DNA of 16,261 nucleotides from Candidatus Heimdallarchaeota archaeon B3_Heim (GTDB lineage Archaea; Asgardarchaeota; Heimdallarchaeia; Hodarchaeales; Hodarchaeaceae): assembly GCA_003144275.1 (NCBI GenBank), contig NJBF01000055.1, forward strand, positions 1 through 16,261. Direction: 5' to 3'. The translations under genes were made by a program, and so were the position numbers. Numbering within the stretch: position 1 is the first letter of the stretch; each line of letters begins with the position of its first letter. This document shows positions 2,008 to 16,261 of the stretch, piece by piece. A model generated the notes under the pieces. It made no database searches, was not told the origin of the DNA, and was given only the letters and a program-made list of their open reading frames with translations.

Positions 2008-2048
2008 TAACCAGCGAGCAGTTCCGAAAAAAAGTTGATATAGGAATA
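2008..2048 (+). repeat. Intergenic site S1 (core plus right arm)
   Basis: TAACCA-gcgagc-AGTTCCGAAAAAAAGTTGATaTAGGAATA. Positions 2020-2048 are 28/29 identical to 4991-5019. Confidence 0.9.
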
Positions 2049-2224
2049 GATATTCATATCAATTAGAGAATAATCGAGTGGTTTTACTATCTCTGTTGAT
2101 TATTAGTTTCCTAGCTCTCCTTAACTATAATAGAAATCTTCCTGAAAAACTGAAGAAGTTCCAAGAAGCGACCAAAGAAACATTTAATAAAGAAAATTTT
2201 CCCCTAGTTCATTCAGGTGTTGAC

Positions 2225-2743
2225 ATGGATATCTCTTCTTCAAAATTAGAATCCTATCCGATGAAGATAGTTTGTATATCCGCATCATTGACTATCATAA
2301 GCTATTTAGCTGGTGCCTCTATATTATACTTCTTTCATCCCTTATTAAGTGTATTTTATCTAATACTTGCAGCACTAACTCTTGTAGTAAGTATGAAACT
2401 TCGTTGTACCCATTGTTACTACTTTGGGAAATATTGTAATTTCGGTTTGGGGAAACTTGCTCAGAATTTCTTCAGTAAAGGAGAGCCAAGAGAATTTCGT
2501 AATCCTAAGAAGGTAGGTATTACCGCAATTTTAAGTTTTGGGACAATGCTAATTCCAGTGTTTATTGGGTTATTGATACTAGTAACAGATATGAATTTAT
2601 CTAATCTAGGGCTTCTCTTTGGTTATATACTAATTGGTATTACTCCTAATTTTCTTGTACGAGGTAAATTTTGTGATGAATGTATGCAAGGGCAACTTGG
2701 ATGTCCTAGTTATGAACGAATGATAAAATCCAGAGACACATAG
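2225..2743 (+). CDS. Multi-pass membrane protein with Cys clusters (CTHCYYFGKYC; CDECMQGQLGCP)
   Basis: About 4 hydrophobic segments and two Cys clusters. The ORF track starts at GTG 2078, but ATG 2225 has a CAGGTG archaeal-type RBS and is the more likely start. Confidence 0.75.
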   Translation: MDISSSKLESYPMKIVCISASLTIISYLAGASILYFFHPLLSVFYLILAALTLVVSMKLRCTHCYYFGKYCNFGLGKLAQNFFSKGEPREFRNPKKVGITAILSFGTMLIPVFIGLLILVTDMNLSNLGLLFGYILIGITPNFLVRGKFCDECMQGQLGCPSYERMIKSRDT

Positions 2744-2744
2744 C

Positions 2745-2782
2745 AGATGTGCAATAATCAACGAAAAATTCTGAAAAGAACT
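2745..2782 (+). repeat. Intergenic site S2 (left arm, core, degenerate right arm)
   Basis: AGATGTGCAA-TAATCA-acgaaa-AATTCTGAAAAGAACT. Positions 2745-2764 are 19/20 identical to 3452-3471, and 2767-2782 match the S1/S4 right arm at 12/16 in register. Confidence 0.8.
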
Positions 2783-2865
2783 AATTTATTATTAACAATT
2801 TCAAAACAAATAATTCAGAGATAAATTTTCCAGAAGAGTTCAAATAACTGCTGGTTGTGTTACCA

Positions 2866-3330
2866 ATGAAATCTCTATTAGTCTTATTTTCATACCATCA
2901 CAAGAACACTGAGAAAATCGCTAAGGTCTTCGCAAAAATTCTTGATGCACAAATAAAAGCACCAAAACAAATAAATCCTGATGAGCTTCAAGAATATGAT
3001 CTAGTAGGCTTCGGTTCAGGAATATATAGCGATAAACACCATAAATCTCTGCTTAATCTTGCTGATAAAATACCACAAGTCACTAATAGGAAAGCATTCA
3101 TTTTCTCCACTAGTGCTATGATGGGAGAAGATAAAGTCGCTAAAGATCACTCGATGCTTAGGGAAAAACTACGATTTAAAGGTTACAGGATTGTAGATGA
3201 ATTTGCCTGTAAAGGTTTTAACACCAATAGTTTCCTGAAATATTTTGGAGGAATGAATAAAGGCAGACCTAATGCTGATGACCTTATACATGCGGAAGAG
3301 TTTGCTCAGAGCCTGAAGCAGAACTTATAA
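2866..3330 (+). CDS. Flavodoxin family protein
   Basis: N-terminal FMN-binding loop SYHHKNTEKIA, DLVGFGSGIY, AFIFSTS and C-terminal GRPNADDLIHAEEFA are typical of short archaeal flavodoxin-like proteins. ATG 2866 preferred over GTG 2857. Confidence 0.88.
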   Translation: MKSLLVLFSYHHKNTEKIAKVFAKILDAQIKAPKQINPDELQEYDLVGFGSGIYSDKHHKSLLNLADKIPQVTNRKAFIFSTSAMMGEDKVAKDHSMLREKLRFKGYRIVDEFACKGFNTNSFLKYFGGMNKGRPNADDLIHAEEFAQSLKQNL

Positions 3331-3451
3331 ACGAAAATGTGAACAAAACAATGAGGATTAATTATAAGAGCGATTATATAACAGACGTGGAAAAAGCATT
3401 CGCCTCATATGCACTAGATCTTTTTTTCAGGAAAAATTTGAAAAAAATTAT

Positions 3452-3471
3452 AGATGTGCAATAACCAACGA
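3452..3471 (+). repeat. Intergenic site S3 (left arm plus core only)
   Basis: AGATGTGCAA-TAACCA-acga; 19/20 to S2. It shares TGCAATAACCAA exactly with S4, and similarity to the right arm stops after the core. Confidence 0.8.
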
Positions 3472-3511
3472 TATATGATTTCTCTTTCTGGGTATTAACA
3501 TAAAATGAAAT

Positions 3512-3544
3512 AAAAAAAATGAGCATCTTCCTAAAAAAGATGCT
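3512..3544 (-). terminator. Hairpin plus oligo-T, putative terminator of the clostripain gene
   Basis: Perfect 8-bp stem AGCATCTT/AAGATGCT (3522-3529/3537-3544) with a 7-nt loop, followed on the minus strand by T8, about 10 nt after the clostripain stop. Confidence 0.5.
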
Positions 3545-3554
3545 ATTAAATAGT

Positions 3555-4760
3555 TTAAATACCCCAGTATGTCTGAAGAAATTCCCACCAACCTTCGTGC
3601 GGGAATTGCACTTTAAGATATTCCTCACCATGCCAATATACATTATTCTGGAAGGATCCATAGGAGTTAGGGAAGAAAATACCTAAACCTTCCGCAGATT
3701 CCATGGGTTCGGTAGTCTTAACATAGACTGCAGCTGTGAGAGTTTCATATAGAGCTAATGCCTCTGGGATACCCAAACTCTTCACAAAAGTAGGGAGGTC
3801 GATGTATGCTTCCCAACCATACTGAGACCATCCTAGATTTCCTAGTCCACGGGCTTCTGCAATCAATTCGTGATTGATGTCTAAATCTTCATCATCTTCC
3901 TCAAGCATGGTTATTAGTGCATCTGTCAGATCGCTAAGTTGATGGACAATAGGATCGATGTATGTTAAATCAATGGAAGCTAATTCAACTAGTCGTGATG
4001 CAGGTCTTAATGTCTCATAGTAAGCGATGTAGTCATCGACAATTACTTTTGAAAAGTCAAAACCGTTCATCTCGGGATTAGCTGCGAGATCAGCTAAAAT
4101 GGTGTCATATGGATATCCCCAGCTCGGGACGTACCCTTCCGTCGCGACAACGTAGTCAATTTGCGGGCCTCTTGGATCCCAAACGTATTCATATACCACT
4201 TCGATCATTCCTTCAACACACGCATCGAAAGCGAGGATGTCTAACTGTATCCCGGAAAGGGCGTGAGTAATTTCTTGGTGGGTTAGATGATCCTCGGGGT
4301 GGTCATCCCAACAGCAACCTCTAAAATCATCTCCATGATCCCAAAGCACAAGGACATAATGATTTGCTTTGTAGTGTTTCATCGTGTATTTCACGAATGT
4401 TTCGAGAGTTTTAGGATCCCCCATATTTACTTCCGTACCTGTTAACGGAAATCCTTGGACAATCTCGGGGCTATCCTTTGTAATTTTGTAAAGGTTGGCT
4501 ACATCATCGTATTTGTCCCAAAGAGTGATAATGTTTACATCTTGAGAGGAACCTACTGTACTCATTGCTTCCACATTTTGGTATCCAAAGTAATCTAAAT
4601 TATTATCTGCATCGAGATAGACCATGAAAGTCCATTCAGCCTTCGCTTGTTTTGGGTTAGCCCAAGTTACTGATACTGACATTGTGAGTAGAAGAATAGC
4701 AAACACTAATGCGAGTTTAATTCGGTATTTATCGTGAATCCTTTTATTAAGTCTTATCAT
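3555..4760 (-). CDS. Clostripain-family (peptidase C11) secreted or membrane-anchored cysteine protease
   Basis: WTFMVYLDADNNL N-terminal motif, catalytic His in LVLWDHG and catalytic Cys in FDAC, plus a signal peptide (LALVFAILLLTMSVSVTWA). Start moved from TTG 4958 to ATG 4760 (MIRLNK...), which precedes the signal peptide. Confidence 0.9.
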   Translation of the reverse strand: MIRLNKRIHDKYRIKLALVFAILLLTMSVSVTWANPKQAKAEWTFMVYLDADNNLDYFGYQNVEAMSTVGSSQDVNIITLWDKYDDVANLYKITKDSPEIVQGFPLTGTEVNMGDPKTLETFVKYTMKHYKANHYVLVLWDHGDDFRGCCWDDHPEDHLTHQEITHALSGIQLDILAFDACVEGMIEVVYEYVWDPRGPQIDYVVATEGYVPSWGYPYDTILADLAANPEMNGFDFSKVIVDDYIAYYETLRPASRLVELASIDLTYIDPIVHQLSDLTDALITMLEEDDEDLDINHELIAEARGLGNLGWSQYGWEAYIDLPTFVKSLGIPEALALYETLTAAVYVKTTEPMESAEGLGIFFPNSYGSFQNNVYWHGEEYLKVQFPHEGWWEFLQTYWGI

Positions 4761-4973
4761 TTTTCTTCTGGACCTCTTATATCGGATAAATTCGAAAGTA
4801 AATTTATCATTGGAGTTTAGAGTATATAATTTTTTGCTATGGCAATTTGTGCTAATTTCATCCTGGATTGGATTTTCCTCATCCATAAGAGAATAGATGA
4901 ATTTAAAATAAATATTCATTGCAAAGAAGGGTATCCATCTTATTATGATAGAATTCAAGGAAAGAGAGGATTA

Positions 4974-5019
4974 TGCAATAACCAATGCATAGTTCCGAAA
5001 AAAAGTTGATTTAGGAATA
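4974..5019 (+). repeat. Intergenic site S4 (left arm, core and full right arm)
   Basis: TGCAA-TAACCA-atgcat-AGTTCCGAAAAAAAGTTGATtTAGGAATA. It shares its left part with S2/S3 and its right part with S1. Confidence 0.9.
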
Positions 5020-5151
5020 ATTATGACCTCATTTCCTATACTCTAAAATCGATTCTTTTTGATTCAATATCCTAATTGGTCTAGTGAATTTCCGTAAATT
5101 TTAAAAAAATCTTATACATCATTAATAAGAGTGTAAAATCAGGGATATAAC

Positions 5152-5334
5152 ATGCAAACCATTAACAATCAGATGAAACACCGTTTCTTGATAATTTCAC
5201 CCATCTTGTTACTTTTTAGTACTGCTATAATGTTTCTCGTACTAATAAACTTATTCAATGATGAGGTAGGATACTTAATTGGATTTTTATTTCATTATGT
5301 GGTGAAGATTCGAATCATGAAAATTTATTTCTAA
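5152..5334 (+). CDS. Possible small membrane protein, 60 aa
   Basis: ATG ORF with a long hydrophobic stretch; no recognisable family. Could be spurious in AT-rich DNA. Confidence 0.3.
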   Translation: MQTINNQMKHRFLIISPILLLFSTAIMFLVLINLFNDEVGYLIGFLFHYVVKIRIMKIYF

Positions 5335-5417
5335 TAGACCAAAAAACACAATGTAACCAGAAATTATCAGGTAAGACTTCTCATTTTATTGGAATTATCG
5401 TTACGGGAAAGATAAAT

Positions 5418-5867
5418 ATGGCTGAAATTAAAGAAATCATTGATTTTGCAATTAAAAAAGAAATTGAAGCATATGATCTATATTCTGGCATTGCTAAAAC
5501 CTCAAACAATCCAGCTGTTCAAAAACTCCTCCAAGAAATCGCGAACGATGAACTTGGCCATAAAGAGGCTCTTGAAAACCTTTCAAGGGCAGAGGAAATT
5601 TTAAATTTCGATATAGACCAGGTTCAAGATCTTAAATTATCAGATCATCTTCAAACGACTTCTATTGATGAGGATTCCGACCTTCAAGAAATTCTTGTGT
5701 TTGCCATGAAAGAGGAAAAAGGTGCTTACGAATTATATACTAAGATGACAAAGGCAGCACAAACGAAGGAAAATGCAACGATCTTCCAAAAACTTGCTCA
5801 AATGGAACTCATCCATAAGAACAAACTAGAATCTCTTTATGATGACATGTTTTACACAGACAATTAA
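5418..5867 (+). CDS. Rubrerythrin-like ferritin-fold di-iron protein (no rubredoxin domain)
   Basis: Duplicated helix pairs FAIKKEIEAYDLY...DELGH and FAMKEEKGAYELY...MELIH carrying ExxH iron ligands. Confidence 0.9.
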   Translation: MAEIKEIIDFAIKKEIEAYDLYSGIAKTSNNPAVQKLLQEIANDELGHKEALENLSRAEEILNFDIDQVQDLKLSDHLQTTSIDEDSDLQEILVFAMKEEKGAYELYTKMTKAAQTKENATIFQKLAQMELIHKNKLESLYDDMFYTDN

Positions 5868-10592: not shown

Positions 10593-10717
10593 TTTCTTTC
10601 CCTGTGTTTGATTCTTTGAAAATGAATTAAATTAATAAATGAATCCTTTAGATCACGGAATAAATCGTATTAATCTATTATGAAAATACTAGGAAATATT
10701 TACTATTTTGGAGTTTG

Positions 10718-11743
10718 ATGATGTCTTCTGCAAAATTTCCAGTTATTAAATTAAAGGGAAGCCCAGAAGATATTGGTTTTAAACATGGGGATATATTAAA
10801 AGATAGAATTCATTCTACAGTCGATTGGTATAAAAAGACCATAGGGAGAGATGAAAACCAACTATTGAAGATATCTTCTAACTTTAAATCAGTAATCAAT
10901 CATTTTAATCCTAGTTATGTAACTGAAATAGATGCTATCGCAGCTGGTGCAGACATCAATCCAGCTTGGATTTACATGCTGAATGCTCGTTCTGAAATTA
11001 TGAACATTTTTCAGAATGAATGTACAGCAGTCTTTTTCAAGGCTTCAGCTATTTTAGGACAAAATTGGGATTGGGCTCAGAACCTAGAGAACTTAGCTGT
11101 CATTATGAGAATGGAAATAGAAGATAGACCTGATATACTCATGATGACCGAGCCTGGTATAATTGGAAAAATAGGATTTAATTCGGATGGAGTAGGAGTC
11201 TGTTTAAATTTTTTAGATTCTGGAAGGCCAACTCAAGGTGTTCCAATTCATCTCATCCTCAGAAAAGTGTTAGAATCATCAACTATTGATAAAGCTGTGA
11301 AATCTATTGATCCTTTTATGGCAGGTAAATCTGCAAATATTCTAATAGGGGACTCTAAAGGGAAATTTATTGATATTGAATTTGCAAATGATAAAATATA
11401 TCGACCTTTGGCAGACAATGATATTTTCTTACATACCAATCATTACCTGGAAAATGACGAACTTAACCATGATAAAGAGAAATTAGCTAGTTCTTTCAAT
11501 AGGTATCGAACAGGCATGAGACTAATACAAAATAGACACCTACAATCGGTTGATGATATGAAACAAGTCTTATTGGATCGCTCAGAGGAAGATCTACCAA
11601 TCTGTCGTCATTACGTTGAAAATCCCGATATAGGTACAGTAGGAACGATTTGTACAGTAATCATGGACTTAAGAAGGCTACGGATGCACATCACTAGAGG
11701 CAATCCAATAGCAACTCCATTTTCAGTGATAAATCTTATTTAG
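10718..11743 (+). CDS. Peptidase C45 family (Ntn-hydrolase, acyl-CoA:6-APA acyltransferase-like)
   Basis: GSPEDIGFKHG N-terminus, N-terminal nucleophile context ECT...LGQNWDW, IGFNSDGVGVCLN, HTNHY and SSFNRY. Start could be 10715, 10718 or 10721. Confidence 0.88.
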   Translation: MMSSAKFPVIKLKGSPEDIGFKHGDILKDRIHSTVDWYKKTIGRDENQLLKISSNFKSVINHFNPSYVTEIDAIAAGADINPAWIYMLNARSEIMNIFQNECTAVFFKASAILGQNWDWAQNLENLAVIMRMEIEDRPDILMMTEPGIIGKIGFNSDGVGVCLNFLDSGRPTQGVPIHLILRKVLESSTIDKAVKSIDPFMAGKSANILIGDSKGKFIDIEFANDKIYRPLADNDIFLHTNHYLENDELNHDKEKLASSFNRYRTGMRLIQNRHLQSVDDMKQVLLDRSEEDLPICRHYVENPDIGTVGTICTVIMDLRRLRMHITRGNPIATPFSVINLI

Positions 11744-11817
11744 GGGATTCTTCAGGATTATCACTATCGTTTGTATTTAAAGTGGGATATTAAAGCAAAA
11801 TCTGTGATGTTATTCAT

Positions 11818-12858
11818 ATGACTGAATATTCTATTGAGGTATTTGACCCTCCTAAAGTTGCTGATGAAGAAGTTTGGGACAATCTCTACAAATTTTACTT
11901 AGCGTTCTTCAATGACATGTATCCTAATGATCCAGTCACTCCCAAAGCACGTCTAATAAAATCATTAAAAGACCCACATCCTCATTATCATATTAACTAC
12001 TGGCTGATTTTTACTCTTGATAAAACTATCATTGGCTGGGCCAATAGCTATATTTCGAAAAAAACAAACCCTGCATACGATACAAATAAGCATATAGCAG
12101 AATGTAATACTATTATATTGAAAGAGCATCGTCGTAATGGATTAGGGACCAAACTTTTACAGAATCATGTTAATTTAGCAAAGAAACATAATAGAACTCT
12201 TATACAGTCTGGGACAACTGAAGAATCAGGACATAACTTCCTCAAAAAATTTGGAGGAAAAGAGGCCATTCAAGGCTCTGAAAATCGTCTGCAAATGAAG
12301 GAAGTAGAATGGTCATTGATGAAGCAGTGGATTGATGATGGGCCAAAAAGAGCCAAGGGTGTAACTCTCGAACGGTTTGTTGATGTTTCTGAAAGTGATA
12401 TTGAAGAGTATTGCATTATTTATACTGAAACTATGAATCAACAACCTTTTGGAGAGCTTGAAGGCAGAGCTAGACAAACTCCTGAATCACGAAGGTTAAG
12501 CGAGGAGAGGATCCGAAAAAGGGAAGGTAAATGGACTACTCTAATTTCAAGAGAAAAAGATGGGCCAATTAGTGGTTTAACGGAAATTATTTTCTTTCCA
12601 GATAAACCTACGATGCTCTACCAAGATCTAACTGGAGTTAAAGAGGAGTATCGTGGACGAGGTCTTGGCAAATGGCTGAAAGCATCAATGTTATACTGGA
12701 TTAGCAGCGAATACCCAGAGGTCAAAACAATTATCACTGGGAATGCAACGGAGAATGCTCCAATGCTATCCATTAACGAGAGAATGGGTTTTAAGGAATA
12801 TAAATCTGGGACAGAGTACAAGGTTCAGGTTGAAGAACTTGAAAAACTATTAGCATAA
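11818..12858 (+). CDS. Tandem (two-domain) GNAT acetyltransferase
   Basis: Two CoA-binding motifs: ILKEHRRNGLGTKLL and TGVKEEYRGRGLGKWLK...TGNATENAPMLSINERMGF. Confidence 0.9.
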   Translation: MTEYSIEVFDPPKVADEEVWDNLYKFYLAFFNDMYPNDPVTPKARLIKSLKDPHPHYHINYWLIFTLDKTIIGWANSYISKKTNPAYDTNKHIAECNTIILKEHRRNGLGTKLLQNHVNLAKKHNRTLIQSGTTEESGHNFLKKFGGKEAIQGSENRLQMKEVEWSLMKQWIDDGPKRAKGVTLERFVDVSESDIEEYCIIYTETMNQQPFGELEGRARQTPESRRLSEERIRKREGKWTTLISREKDGPISGLTEIIFFPDKPTMLYQDLTGVKEEYRGRGLGKWLKASMLYWISSEYPEVKTIITGNATENAPMLSINERMGFKEYKSGTEYKVQVEELEKLLA

Positions 12859-13189
12859 GTCAATCTAGTCGACAGGATTTTCCTTCTAATCCAAATATCT
12901 AGCCAATATTCCTCATTTCTTTATTTTCTTCCCTCTAAAACCTTTGGGAGAACATTGCTAAAAATCATTTTTTGCATTCTAACTAGATTTTTACGAATAG
13001 AATCTTTCATTAAAACAAATAATATTCATAATACATATAATTTAAGATAACTTAGGACGCATTATTAGCTTCCCTAGGACTCTATCGAACGAAAAATGCT
13101 TTAATTCATCTCAAAACTCGTGTAAATGGAGAGATGACAATCTACAAAGCGAGATTTTGTAATAGATTACTATAAGGAGATACGTATTA

Positions 13190-15758: not shown

Positions 15759-15886
15759 TAAATAAAACAAAAAACAGTTATGTATTATTTGAAAAATCAG
15801 AAAAGTACTAAATAAAATCGCTAAAAAGTCCAGACTAATTATTTCTTCTTCAGAATCAGTCATATATTTCTTTCAGTTAATTTTAT

Positions 15887-16261
15887 ATCTCGAATGATGA
15901 GTAAGTCACCATCGGGGAGTAATGACGGAGCTGACCCATAAGCATTTAACTTCTGAGCCAAATGTTTTTCTATGATAGCGAATCAAGAAATACACTCGTT
16001 AGAAAACGGACTCCGTCACTATCCCTCACGGACAGTCCAAGTTTTTAAAACTACCCATCTGACCCGTATTCTCAGAAAACACATTCACGAGACAGATGCC
16101 GACAAAAATCGGAAAGAATTTAGCTGCGAACAGTGGATTAAAGGTCTTTCCTTGATGCAGATTCAGAAATTCGAAGCGGTACGACCCTTTGTGCGACAGC
16201 TAGAGCAAAATAGATCCTGGCAAGCTATTTGTGGTTATCAAGGAAACGTACCCACTCAAGG
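15887..16261 (+). mobile_element. Left end of a putative insertion sequence (truncated by the window edge)
   Basis: Candidate terminal inverted repeat at 15887-15904 followed by a transposase-like ORF. The exact boundary is uncertain. Confidence 0.55.
15972..16261 (+). CDS. Putative DDE transposase N-terminus (IS4/IS5/IS1182-like), partial
   Basis: Open frame from ATG 15972 to the window end, translated by hand: MIANQEIHSLENGLRHYPSRTVQVFKTTHLTRILRKHIHETDADKNRKEFSCEQWIKGLSLMQIQKFEAVRPFVRQLEQNRSWQAICGYQGNVPTQG. The FVRQLEQNRSWQAICGY...VPTQ segment resembles the N-terminal helical (DUF772-like) region of these transposases. It is absent from the ORF track, presumably because it has no stop in the window. 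Confidence 0.7.
   Translation, partial: MIANQEIHSLENGLRHYPSRTVQVFKTTHLTRILRKHIHETDADKNRKEFSCEQWIKGLSLMQIQKFEAVRPFVRQLEQNRSWQAICGYQGNVPTQ

Follow-up and report, generated by a model that had tools for sequence, protein, structure and literature searches.

A candidate gene-cassette exchange system with one-armed, dif-like sites in a genus of Heimdallarchaeia

Small accessory genes that are bounded by short recombination sites have been described in several settings. The dif modules of Acinetobacter are small accessory units, toxin-antitoxin pairs among them, that lie between short Xer-type sites, each with an arm, a 6-bp centre and another arm, and are shuffled from one context to another without a recombinase gene of their own, the host Xer proteins being presumed to act in trans (PMC6449649, PMC13141974, PMC12907356); insertion sequences (ISs) of the IS1202 family hunt these sites (PMC10132070). 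Integrons and clusters of attC sites lacking an integrase (CALINs), archaeal ones included, consist of one-directional arrays of mostly single genes, promoterless or self-promoted, each with a 3' site. They carry GNAT acetyltransferases, toxin-antitoxin pairs and small enzymes, contain empty mini-cassettes and host site-specialised elements such as the IS1111-attC elements and the group IIC-attC introns (Ghaly et al. 2022, PMC9668308). Integrative mobile elements exploiting Xer (IMEX), to which the CTX and TLC phages and the gonococcal genetic island belong, combine one good arm, a common centre and a degenerate second arm, and rely on a host recombinase in trans (PMC5357621). In these respects all of them would, on the reading proposed below, be like the locus discussed here, positions 2008-5019 of a contig of Candidatus Heimdallarchaeota archaeon B3_Heim (NJBF01000055.1). 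With a probability of about 0.62, this stretch is an array of three cassettes joined at the crossover sites of a site-specific recombination system that is confined to the genus of this archaeon.

The window, that is, the whole stretch of DNA that was analysed, is a complete contig of 16,261 nt (C56) of the host genome, here called G000, whose assembly amounts to 3.95 Mb in 103 contigs with 36% GC. An earlier note on this DNA had reported four copies (S1-S4) of a site of about 45 bp, with 28/29 identical positions between the right arms of S1 and S4 and 19/20 between the left arms of S2 and S3; the four copies were recovered where it had placed them (Table 1), and both identities were reproduced. 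The repeat is therefore real, but it is not a single 45-bp site, as it falls into two parts, a universal 27-nt left arm with its core and an optional right arm of 29-35 nt that is borne by the cassettes. Pairs of 29-mers with at most one mismatch occur once in the window and never in 100 first-order Markov shuffles of it, and for pairs of 20-mers 13 overlapping windows were observed against a mean of 0.02 in the same number of such shuffles. Together with reversed-pattern controls, these shuffles rule out a chance origin of the repeats.

The constant part is the site TTATATAAY-AGATGTGCAATAA-CCAACG (aligned, TTATATAAY-AGATGTGCAATAACCAAC-G), and its information content drops abruptly past the final G. 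The copies beyond the window that the earlier note's proposal implied do exist. Left arm and core recur on contigs C32, C41, C57, C59, C61 and C103 of G000, where similarity always ends at CCAAC(G), and a scan of this genome with a position weight matrix (PWM) returned nine strong copies, against none with the reversed matrix. An 18-mer of the site, with at most two mismatches allowed, is present in 19 of the 22 genomes of the genus (73 matches, against 3 for the reversed control); in 61 genomes from other genera of the class it stays at background level (12 against 8). Furthermore, exact matches were found in 44 metagenome contigs, and none in viral contigs.

As to the position of the site relative to genes, all but one of 37 sites (36/37) lie in intergenic DNA. 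The gene that adjoins the left arm has the orientation of the site in 26/35 cases (one-sided p ~0.004, normal approximation). Beyond the core the orientation is random, 20/34 genes being co-oriented with the site, and 14 of these 34 sites face a convergent gene. Thus, the site behaves as a 3' appendage of a gene and not as a promoter; a role of the left arm as a promoter, from TATA to transcription start, was excluded by the same random orientation downstream. Arrays in which all sites point in one direction, at a spacing of 0.5-4 kb, occur in the relatives (G004:C230, G007:C53, G013:C122, G001:C31) and on metagenome contigs (L081, L084), and their cargo there is integron-like: GNAT acetyltransferases, VapBC pairs, TumE, RidA and DUF4258 proteins. 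Same-orientation arrays of mostly single-gene cassettes, each with a site at its 3' end, are therefore what is found, S2-S4 of the window included.

Two arrangements in one relative deserve a separate mention. At G004:C46:6728-6773 (L021), two copies of the site face each other head to head with the palindrome TTATATAA in common, which gives a near-perfect inverted structure of ~46 bp. The ends of contig G004:C230 (L019, 5969 nt) are the two halves of a gene that is contiguous in G002:C45 (L051) and G004:C399 (L052). This contig is therefore circularly permuted, and it may be a small circular element made of site-bounded modules, or a tandem arrangement.

Evidence for exchange comes from the sequences on either side of the site. 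For 78 distinct sites, the adjoining 300 nt to the left and to the right were compared, the site itself being excluded; ten pairs had only the upstream flank in common, four only the downstream flank, and none both. Homology reaches to within 0-6 nt of the site in 10 of these 14 one-sided pairs and ends 17-31 nt short of it in the other four; in one case, the same upstream block is followed by three different sequences downstream (L080, L090, L096). That the copies delimit variable genes, a point the earlier note had wanted checked, is borne out by these counts and by three blocks that break at the core. The flavodoxin block of the window (2782-3398) is 93% identical in G013:C144 and G004:C278, with different neighbours outside it, and has a core at either end in all three genomes; in both relatives its start directly follows a core, behind which stands the complete right arm, and its end is formed by the consensus left arm and core. 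The arms upstream of the three copies, ATGTCGGATAACCAAT, TTACATTAACCAAC and GTGCAATAATCAAC, have just the ~8-nt core in common. The junction must therefore be placed at the core side of the arm, and the common stretch does not suffice for homologous exchange. A second block, with a prenylcysteine-lyase gene, is 92.5% identical between G011:C35 and G007:C61 and has its 3' end at the site in both; its 5' end shows a clear core in G007 and just a partial core-like stretch (ATAACC) in G011. The third, a VapBC block found in seven genomes at 81-88% identity, ends exactly at the site in four of them, and in G018 two copies of a related site, with the centre CCAGCC, stand on either side of it.

Further evidence was provided by an ISH3-like IS of 1280 bp, with the ends CAGTACTTCGTA and a DDE transposase, which is present in several copies in G000. 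Each of its 14 readable flanks ends in a half-site, always in one register, at the centre of an 11-6-11 site. Four of them end in ..TAACCAAC or the one-base variant TACCAAC, one of these at the copy of the main site on C103, and the 4-bp duplications of the two complete copies (CAGC and CGTT) correspond to the central four bases of the 6-bp centre. On metagenome contig L086, the same IS adjoins another copy of the site. The targeting of recombinase-bound dif and pdif sites by ISs is known from Acinetobacter (PMC10132070), and by this analogy the insertions support the view of the centre as a structurally special point that may be bound by protein. Many contigs of the assembly break inside this IS.

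Judged from its letters, the site family appears to parse as 11-6-11, with ATAA and TTAT beside the asymmetric centre CCAACG, which is the layout of dif and of the core sites of other tyrosine recombinases. In the literature the E. coli dif is given as GGTGCGCATAA-TGTATA-TTATGTTAAAT, and archaeal dif sites likewise follow 11-6-11, with cleavage at the edges of the spacer (PMC2958812, PMC8371274). Complementarity to the left arm ATGTGCAATAA at 6 or more of the 11 nt after CCAACG was found for 8/37 and for 14/78 sites, where ~6% are expected, examples being TTATACGACAC, TTCATTGACAT and TTAAACGACAT; the symmetric second arm is of the TTAnnnGACAT type and is absent from the other sites. The earlier note had seen neither an attC nor a dif site here. 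As to attC it was right, for no attC-like fold was obtained; as to dif it needs correction at the level of the family, which appears to have an 11-bp arm, a 6-bp centre and a second arm that is symmetric at about three times the chance level. DNA folds of 11 sites or strands, the full left-core-right arrangement included, gave z from +1.1 to -2.7, and 8 of the 11 did no better than shuffles. The three weak excesses (z -1.9 to -2.7) belong to both strands of a small hairpin in S4 and to one palindromic relative, none of them attC-like. Neither R''/L''-L'/R' boxes nor a conserved hairpin nor an Rfam match was found at the sites.

Other palindromes of similar size were considered as well. Uninterrupted sequences of 28 bp with the form ATGTCGTMAAA-N6-TTTKACGACAT and various centres lie at G000:C10:982, C15:11892, C50:40059 and C94:8222, and at G013:C106:9010; they resemble IS targets and often stand beside main sites, and one is identical in G000 and G013. 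They were rejected as a family, because the loose pattern is not enriched over controls, although the single sites are real and serve as IS targets. Similarly, a multi-copy family of TGCAATAA-N6-TTATTGCA palindromes exceeds its reversed control fourfold, but in G000 the spacer of 6 is not enriched over spacers of other lengths, and the reversed control contains CG, and it was therefore assigned to the background.

From these data we infer the following mechanism. A recombinase would bind the 11-bp arm (ATGTGCAATAA), strands would be exchanged within the 6-bp asymmetric centre CCAACG, and the second arm would be mostly degenerate. Recombination between two directly repeated sites would excise the DNA between them as a circle with one site, which would then integrate at any other site, so that left and right flanks would assort independently. 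The host XerA would act in trans as the recombinase, the right arm would ride on the 5' end of some cassettes, and the ISH3-like IS would exploit the centre of the sites.

As to the enzyme, no recombinase is encoded by the open reading frames (ORFs) of the window. When six recombinases of G000 (five tyrosine, one serine) and the transposase of the 1280-bp IS were compared by tblastn with 544 kb of site-bearing loci, a single integrase was found, on G011:C27 at 3 kb from a site, and a metagenome contig has the same downstream flank without it. Other tyrosine recombinases were rejected as partners of the sites, the integrases of G011:C27 and G000:C61 lying 3-10 kb away with no sites beside them. 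This absence of a nearby recombinase fits action in trans. The XerA gene of the host (G000:C27, 31242-32150, minus strand) matches the model NF040815, recomb_XerA_Arch, with 269 bits at a cut-off of 220, and the best PF00589 matches occur once per genome in all five genomes of the genus that were searched. Being the only recombinase found in all five, the host XerA is the leading and simplest candidate and may be the protein that acts on the sites. That the genus runs cassette exchange without a dedicated integrase, with XerA or another host recombinase recombining a one-armed, dif-like 3' site in trans, is possible but somewhat less likely than not. The broader proposal of the earlier note, a possibly undescribed cassette-capture system whose recombinase acts in trans, gains support from the copies elsewhere, the breakpoints and the lack of a local recombinase, the enzyme and the reaction being putative.

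Several observations weigh against such a system. The second arm is unrecognisable in most copies, all four sites of the window keeping one arm and the centre, and a homodimeric XerA is expected to need the second arm. The chromosomal dif of the genus was not found, the candidate palindromes being conserved just between close genome pairs, and no enzyme is linked to the sites. No product of recombination, be it a circle or an empty site in a syntenic backbone, was seen among the assembled sequences that were compared, and the orthologous backbone loci of G031, G003 and G018 have no sites upstream of the rubrerythrin gene and carry unrelated DNA there. Moreover, two genes of the window, a peptidase-C45/AAT-like gene (10715-11743) and a double-GNAT gene (11818-12858), vary among the syntenic genomes G013, G031, G003 and G018, and no recognisable site lies at the junctions of this variable segment (10691-12968). 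Since genes at 10.7-13.0 kb vary without any site, the background of gene flux in the genus is high. Finally, the 5' boundary of the older VapBC block is reproducible and has no core next to it in five of six other genomes, and the array on G004:C230 meets the backbone at the TATATA end of the site and not at the core.

Among the other explanations, the one that survives best sees in the 27-nt site a conserved element of transcription units that marks their 3' end, serves termination or binds a factor. The mosaicism would then have arisen without a dedicated site-specific recombinase, by ordinary recombination (of the RadA type or by microhomology) for which identical 27-nt copies provide the short homology. 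It would account for the site trailing co-oriented genes (26/35), for the lack of a recombinase nearby and for the gene flux at places without sites, and the site does open with a perfect TATA-like palindrome, TTATATAA. We nevertheless consider it unlikely. At S1, at S4 and at the flavodoxin arms, the partners at the junction have just the ~8-nt core or another arm, which is too short for homologous exchange; the random downstream orientation, with 14/34 genes convergent, does not suit a promoter; and the T-run typical of archaeal terminators is absent. In addition, a site-specific IS cuts in the 6-bp centre, like those that hunt recombinase-bound dif sites (PMC10132070).

Still less probable is that the left and right arms are the ends of non-autonomous transposable elements, either passenger-carrying or resembling miniature inverted-repeat transposable elements (MITEs), with the transposase elsewhere and the core as the preferred target. 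Units often open with a right arm and close with a left arm, left arms do occur in inverted pairs (G004:C46, 2748 on the minus and 6756 on the plus strand, besides the head-to-head pair that shares TTATATAA), and an ISH3-like transposase is abundant and tied to the sites. However, no target-site duplications surround the units, neither end is an inverted copy of the other, and 63 of the 78 left arms have no right arm within 70 nt downstream. The arrays, too, keep a single orientation, with one core common to neighbouring units. The IS ends CAGTACTTCGTA are unrelated to either arm, and the genome has no Y1 HUH transposase, which also disposes of IS200/IS605-type ends. The motif is therefore not a known IS or MITE end, an outcome that the earlier note would have counted against its proposal, and the left arm and core do not behave as an operator, given the random orientation downstream.

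A canonical integron array, or a CALIN as found in Asgard metagenome-assembled genomes (MAGs), in which integrons are enriched (PMC9668308), would explain the same-orientation, mostly single-gene cassettes, their typical cargo and an IntI-like fragment on G000:C77, yet it is very improbable with no attC-like fold, no R''/L''-L'/R' boxes and an IntI-like gene that is frameshifted, adjoins an IS21 on a different contig and is missing from the remaining 21 genomes of the genus. That gene (G000:C77:8755-9382, L047) matches TIGR02249 with 186 bits and is directly followed by the IS21 genes (IstA/IstB); no counterpart was found at E<=1e-30 in those 21 genomes, 18 of which have the site.

The right arm requires separate consideration. 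Fourteen clean instances follow the pattern of core, 4 or 6 nt, nGTTCC, 16-17 nt and GGAAYA, against two with a reversed-core control, and the middle contains an A-run and a TTGATATA-like box. Such an arm follows 15 of the 78 sites, and in the cassettes for flavodoxin and prenylcysteine lyase it moves together with the gene downstream. It precedes co-oriented genes whose functions are unrelated (PIN, DUF4258, RidA, prenylcysteine lyase, SBF transporter, glyoxalase, flavodoxin). An operator of a redox regulon, as suggested by the flavodoxin, rubrerythrin and glyoxalase genes, was rejected, as the downstream genes in the relatives are unrelated; for the same reason, the right arm may be a generic cassette promoter and not a regulon operator. 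The most probable role of the right arm is that of a promoter carried by the cassette and provided with a dyad operator; alternatively, it may be an accessory binding site. A promoter consensus anchored on tRNA genes, sought for comparison with it, yielded no common box among the 16 tRNAs called. Positions 4991-5079 of the window are 80% identical to G011:C4:129254-129341, where they stand upstream of a gene for a 1271-aa beta-propeller protein.

The features of the window are listed in Table 1. The layout of S1, a core followed by 4 nt and the right arm, recurs at G000:C32:48492 (minus strand) and in relatives. S2 begins 2 nt past the stop codon of cassette 1, and what the earlier note described as its 12/16 right arm is a genuine decayed one, because a full right arm occupies this position in the orthologous cassettes with the flavodoxin gene in G013 and G004. 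The left side of S3 is a 'long' variant of ~100 nt (3374-3470) that is also present at G000:C103, G000:C57, G004:C278 and G004:C118 and is absent from the G013 cassette; it is explained by tandem sites 45-110 nt apart ('empty' mini-cassettes), as are similar cases on C41, C61, G011:C35 and G007:C61.

Table 1. Sites, arms and genes of the window, with the copies of the ISH3-like insertion sequence in the host genome (positions refer to the window unless a contig is named)
Feature	Position	Strand	Remarks
S1, core TAACCAGC	2008-2015	+	without left arm; junction of unrelated upstream DNA with cassette 1
Right arm, copy 1: AGTTCC-N17-GGAATA around an A-run and TTGATATA	2020-2048	+	5' end of cassette 1
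Cassette 1 gene, 221-aa Cys-rich membrane protein	2078-2743	+	no Pfam or NCBIfam family
S2, AGATGTGCAATAATCAACG; left arm and centre AGATGTGCAATAA-TCAACG	2745-2763	+	PWM score 31.2
Decayed right arm	2764-2795	+	5' end of flavodoxin cassette; aligns with intact right arms in G013:C144 and G004:C278
Cassette 2 gene, flavodoxin	2866-3330	+	PF12724/PF12641
Degenerate extra site copy TTATATAAC-AGACGTGGAAAAAGCATTCG with ~50-nt spacer	3374-3451	+	'long' left-arm variant, or empty mini-cassette
S3, AGATGTGCAATAACCAACG; consensus left arm and centre AGATGTGCAATAA-CCAACG	3452-3470	+	PWM score 35.9; 3' end of flavodoxin cassette
Cassette 3 gene, secreted clostripain-family (C11) peptidase	3555-4760	-	PF03415, E=3e-48; TIGR02806; reversed relative to the sites
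S4, ATGCAATAACCAAT; partial left arm and core ATGCAATAA-CCAATG	4973-4986	+	
Right arm, copy 2	4991-5019	+	after S4; 28/29 identical to 2020-2048
60-aa hydrophobic ORF	5152-5334	+	downstream of S4 right arm
ISH3-like IS, complete copies	G000:C84:11974-13252; C32:60394-61673		
ISH3-like IS, partial copies	contig ends of C103, C32, C36, C47, C60, C3, C7, C21, C59, C91		

One substantial gene occupies each interval between the sites, and the assignments made in the earlier note (a Cys-rich membrane protein, a flavodoxin and a reversed clostripain) were confirmed. The membrane protein has CxxC-type motifs, and DNA homologues 67-78% identical to its gene occur across the genus in a different, conserved context; those of G031 and G003 (75-78% identity) have a common backbone context without sites. 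A clostripain homologue in G014:C298, 80% identical, also lacks sites. The small ORF behind S4 may be the last cassette before the conserved backbone. The latter sets in at 5406 with the gene for rubrerythrin, and from 5406-5418 onwards the contig is syntenic with G031, G003 and G018. Roc/Ras-like GTPase, leucine-rich-repeat and HerA-like genes are also present on the contig, a gene content that suits a Heimdall-type Asgard archaeon. IS copies bound the contig. Both of its ends (1-147 and 15880-16261) recur as repeats on several other contigs of this genome, and a fragment of a DUF772 transposase is encoded in the right one.

Although Asgard genomes are large and mosaic and contain many acquired genes, few mechanisms of this gene flow are known. 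The site offers a concrete and testable one, with a 27-bp substrate and one obvious candidate enzyme. If the cassette reading is true, the combination of a host recombinase with tiny portable sites would extend from the dif modules of bacterial plasmids and from integrons to archaeal chromosomes, and an undescribed route of gene flow would have come to light, an archaeal counterpart that mixes features of integrons and dif modules and has a site-hunting IS of its own. The site also marks accessory cassettes for the annotation of these MAGs and explains the assembly breaks in such regions.

When the literature was searched for the string of the site and for cassette systems of Asgard archaea, only the integron paper (PMC9668308) was returned, and no description of this system was found in the papers searched; Aloposons are unrelated. 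Integrons have a folded attC of 55-140 nt that is conserved in structure, and an IntI, whereas here the motif is a near-invariant sequence of 27 bp, of the double-strand type, with no IntI associated. The pdif modules have inverted sites (C/D then D/C) with two distinct and well-kept arms, while the cassettes here are bounded by direct repeats, one 3' site each, mostly with a single arm. In Acinetobacter, the modules depend on XerC and XerD and lie on plasmids and chromosomes, and ISs insert 5 bp outside the XerC arm; here, an archaeon with a single XerA carries the sites on chromosomal contigs, and the centre itself is the insertion point of the ISH3-like IS. For IMEX, the place of integration is the one chromosomal dif, unlike the many dispersed sites here, for which no link to a terminus dif was found. 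The system thus belongs neither to the integrons, from which it is set apart by its lack of attC and IntI, nor to the dif modules and IMEX, whose inverted-site structure and link to dif were not found for it.

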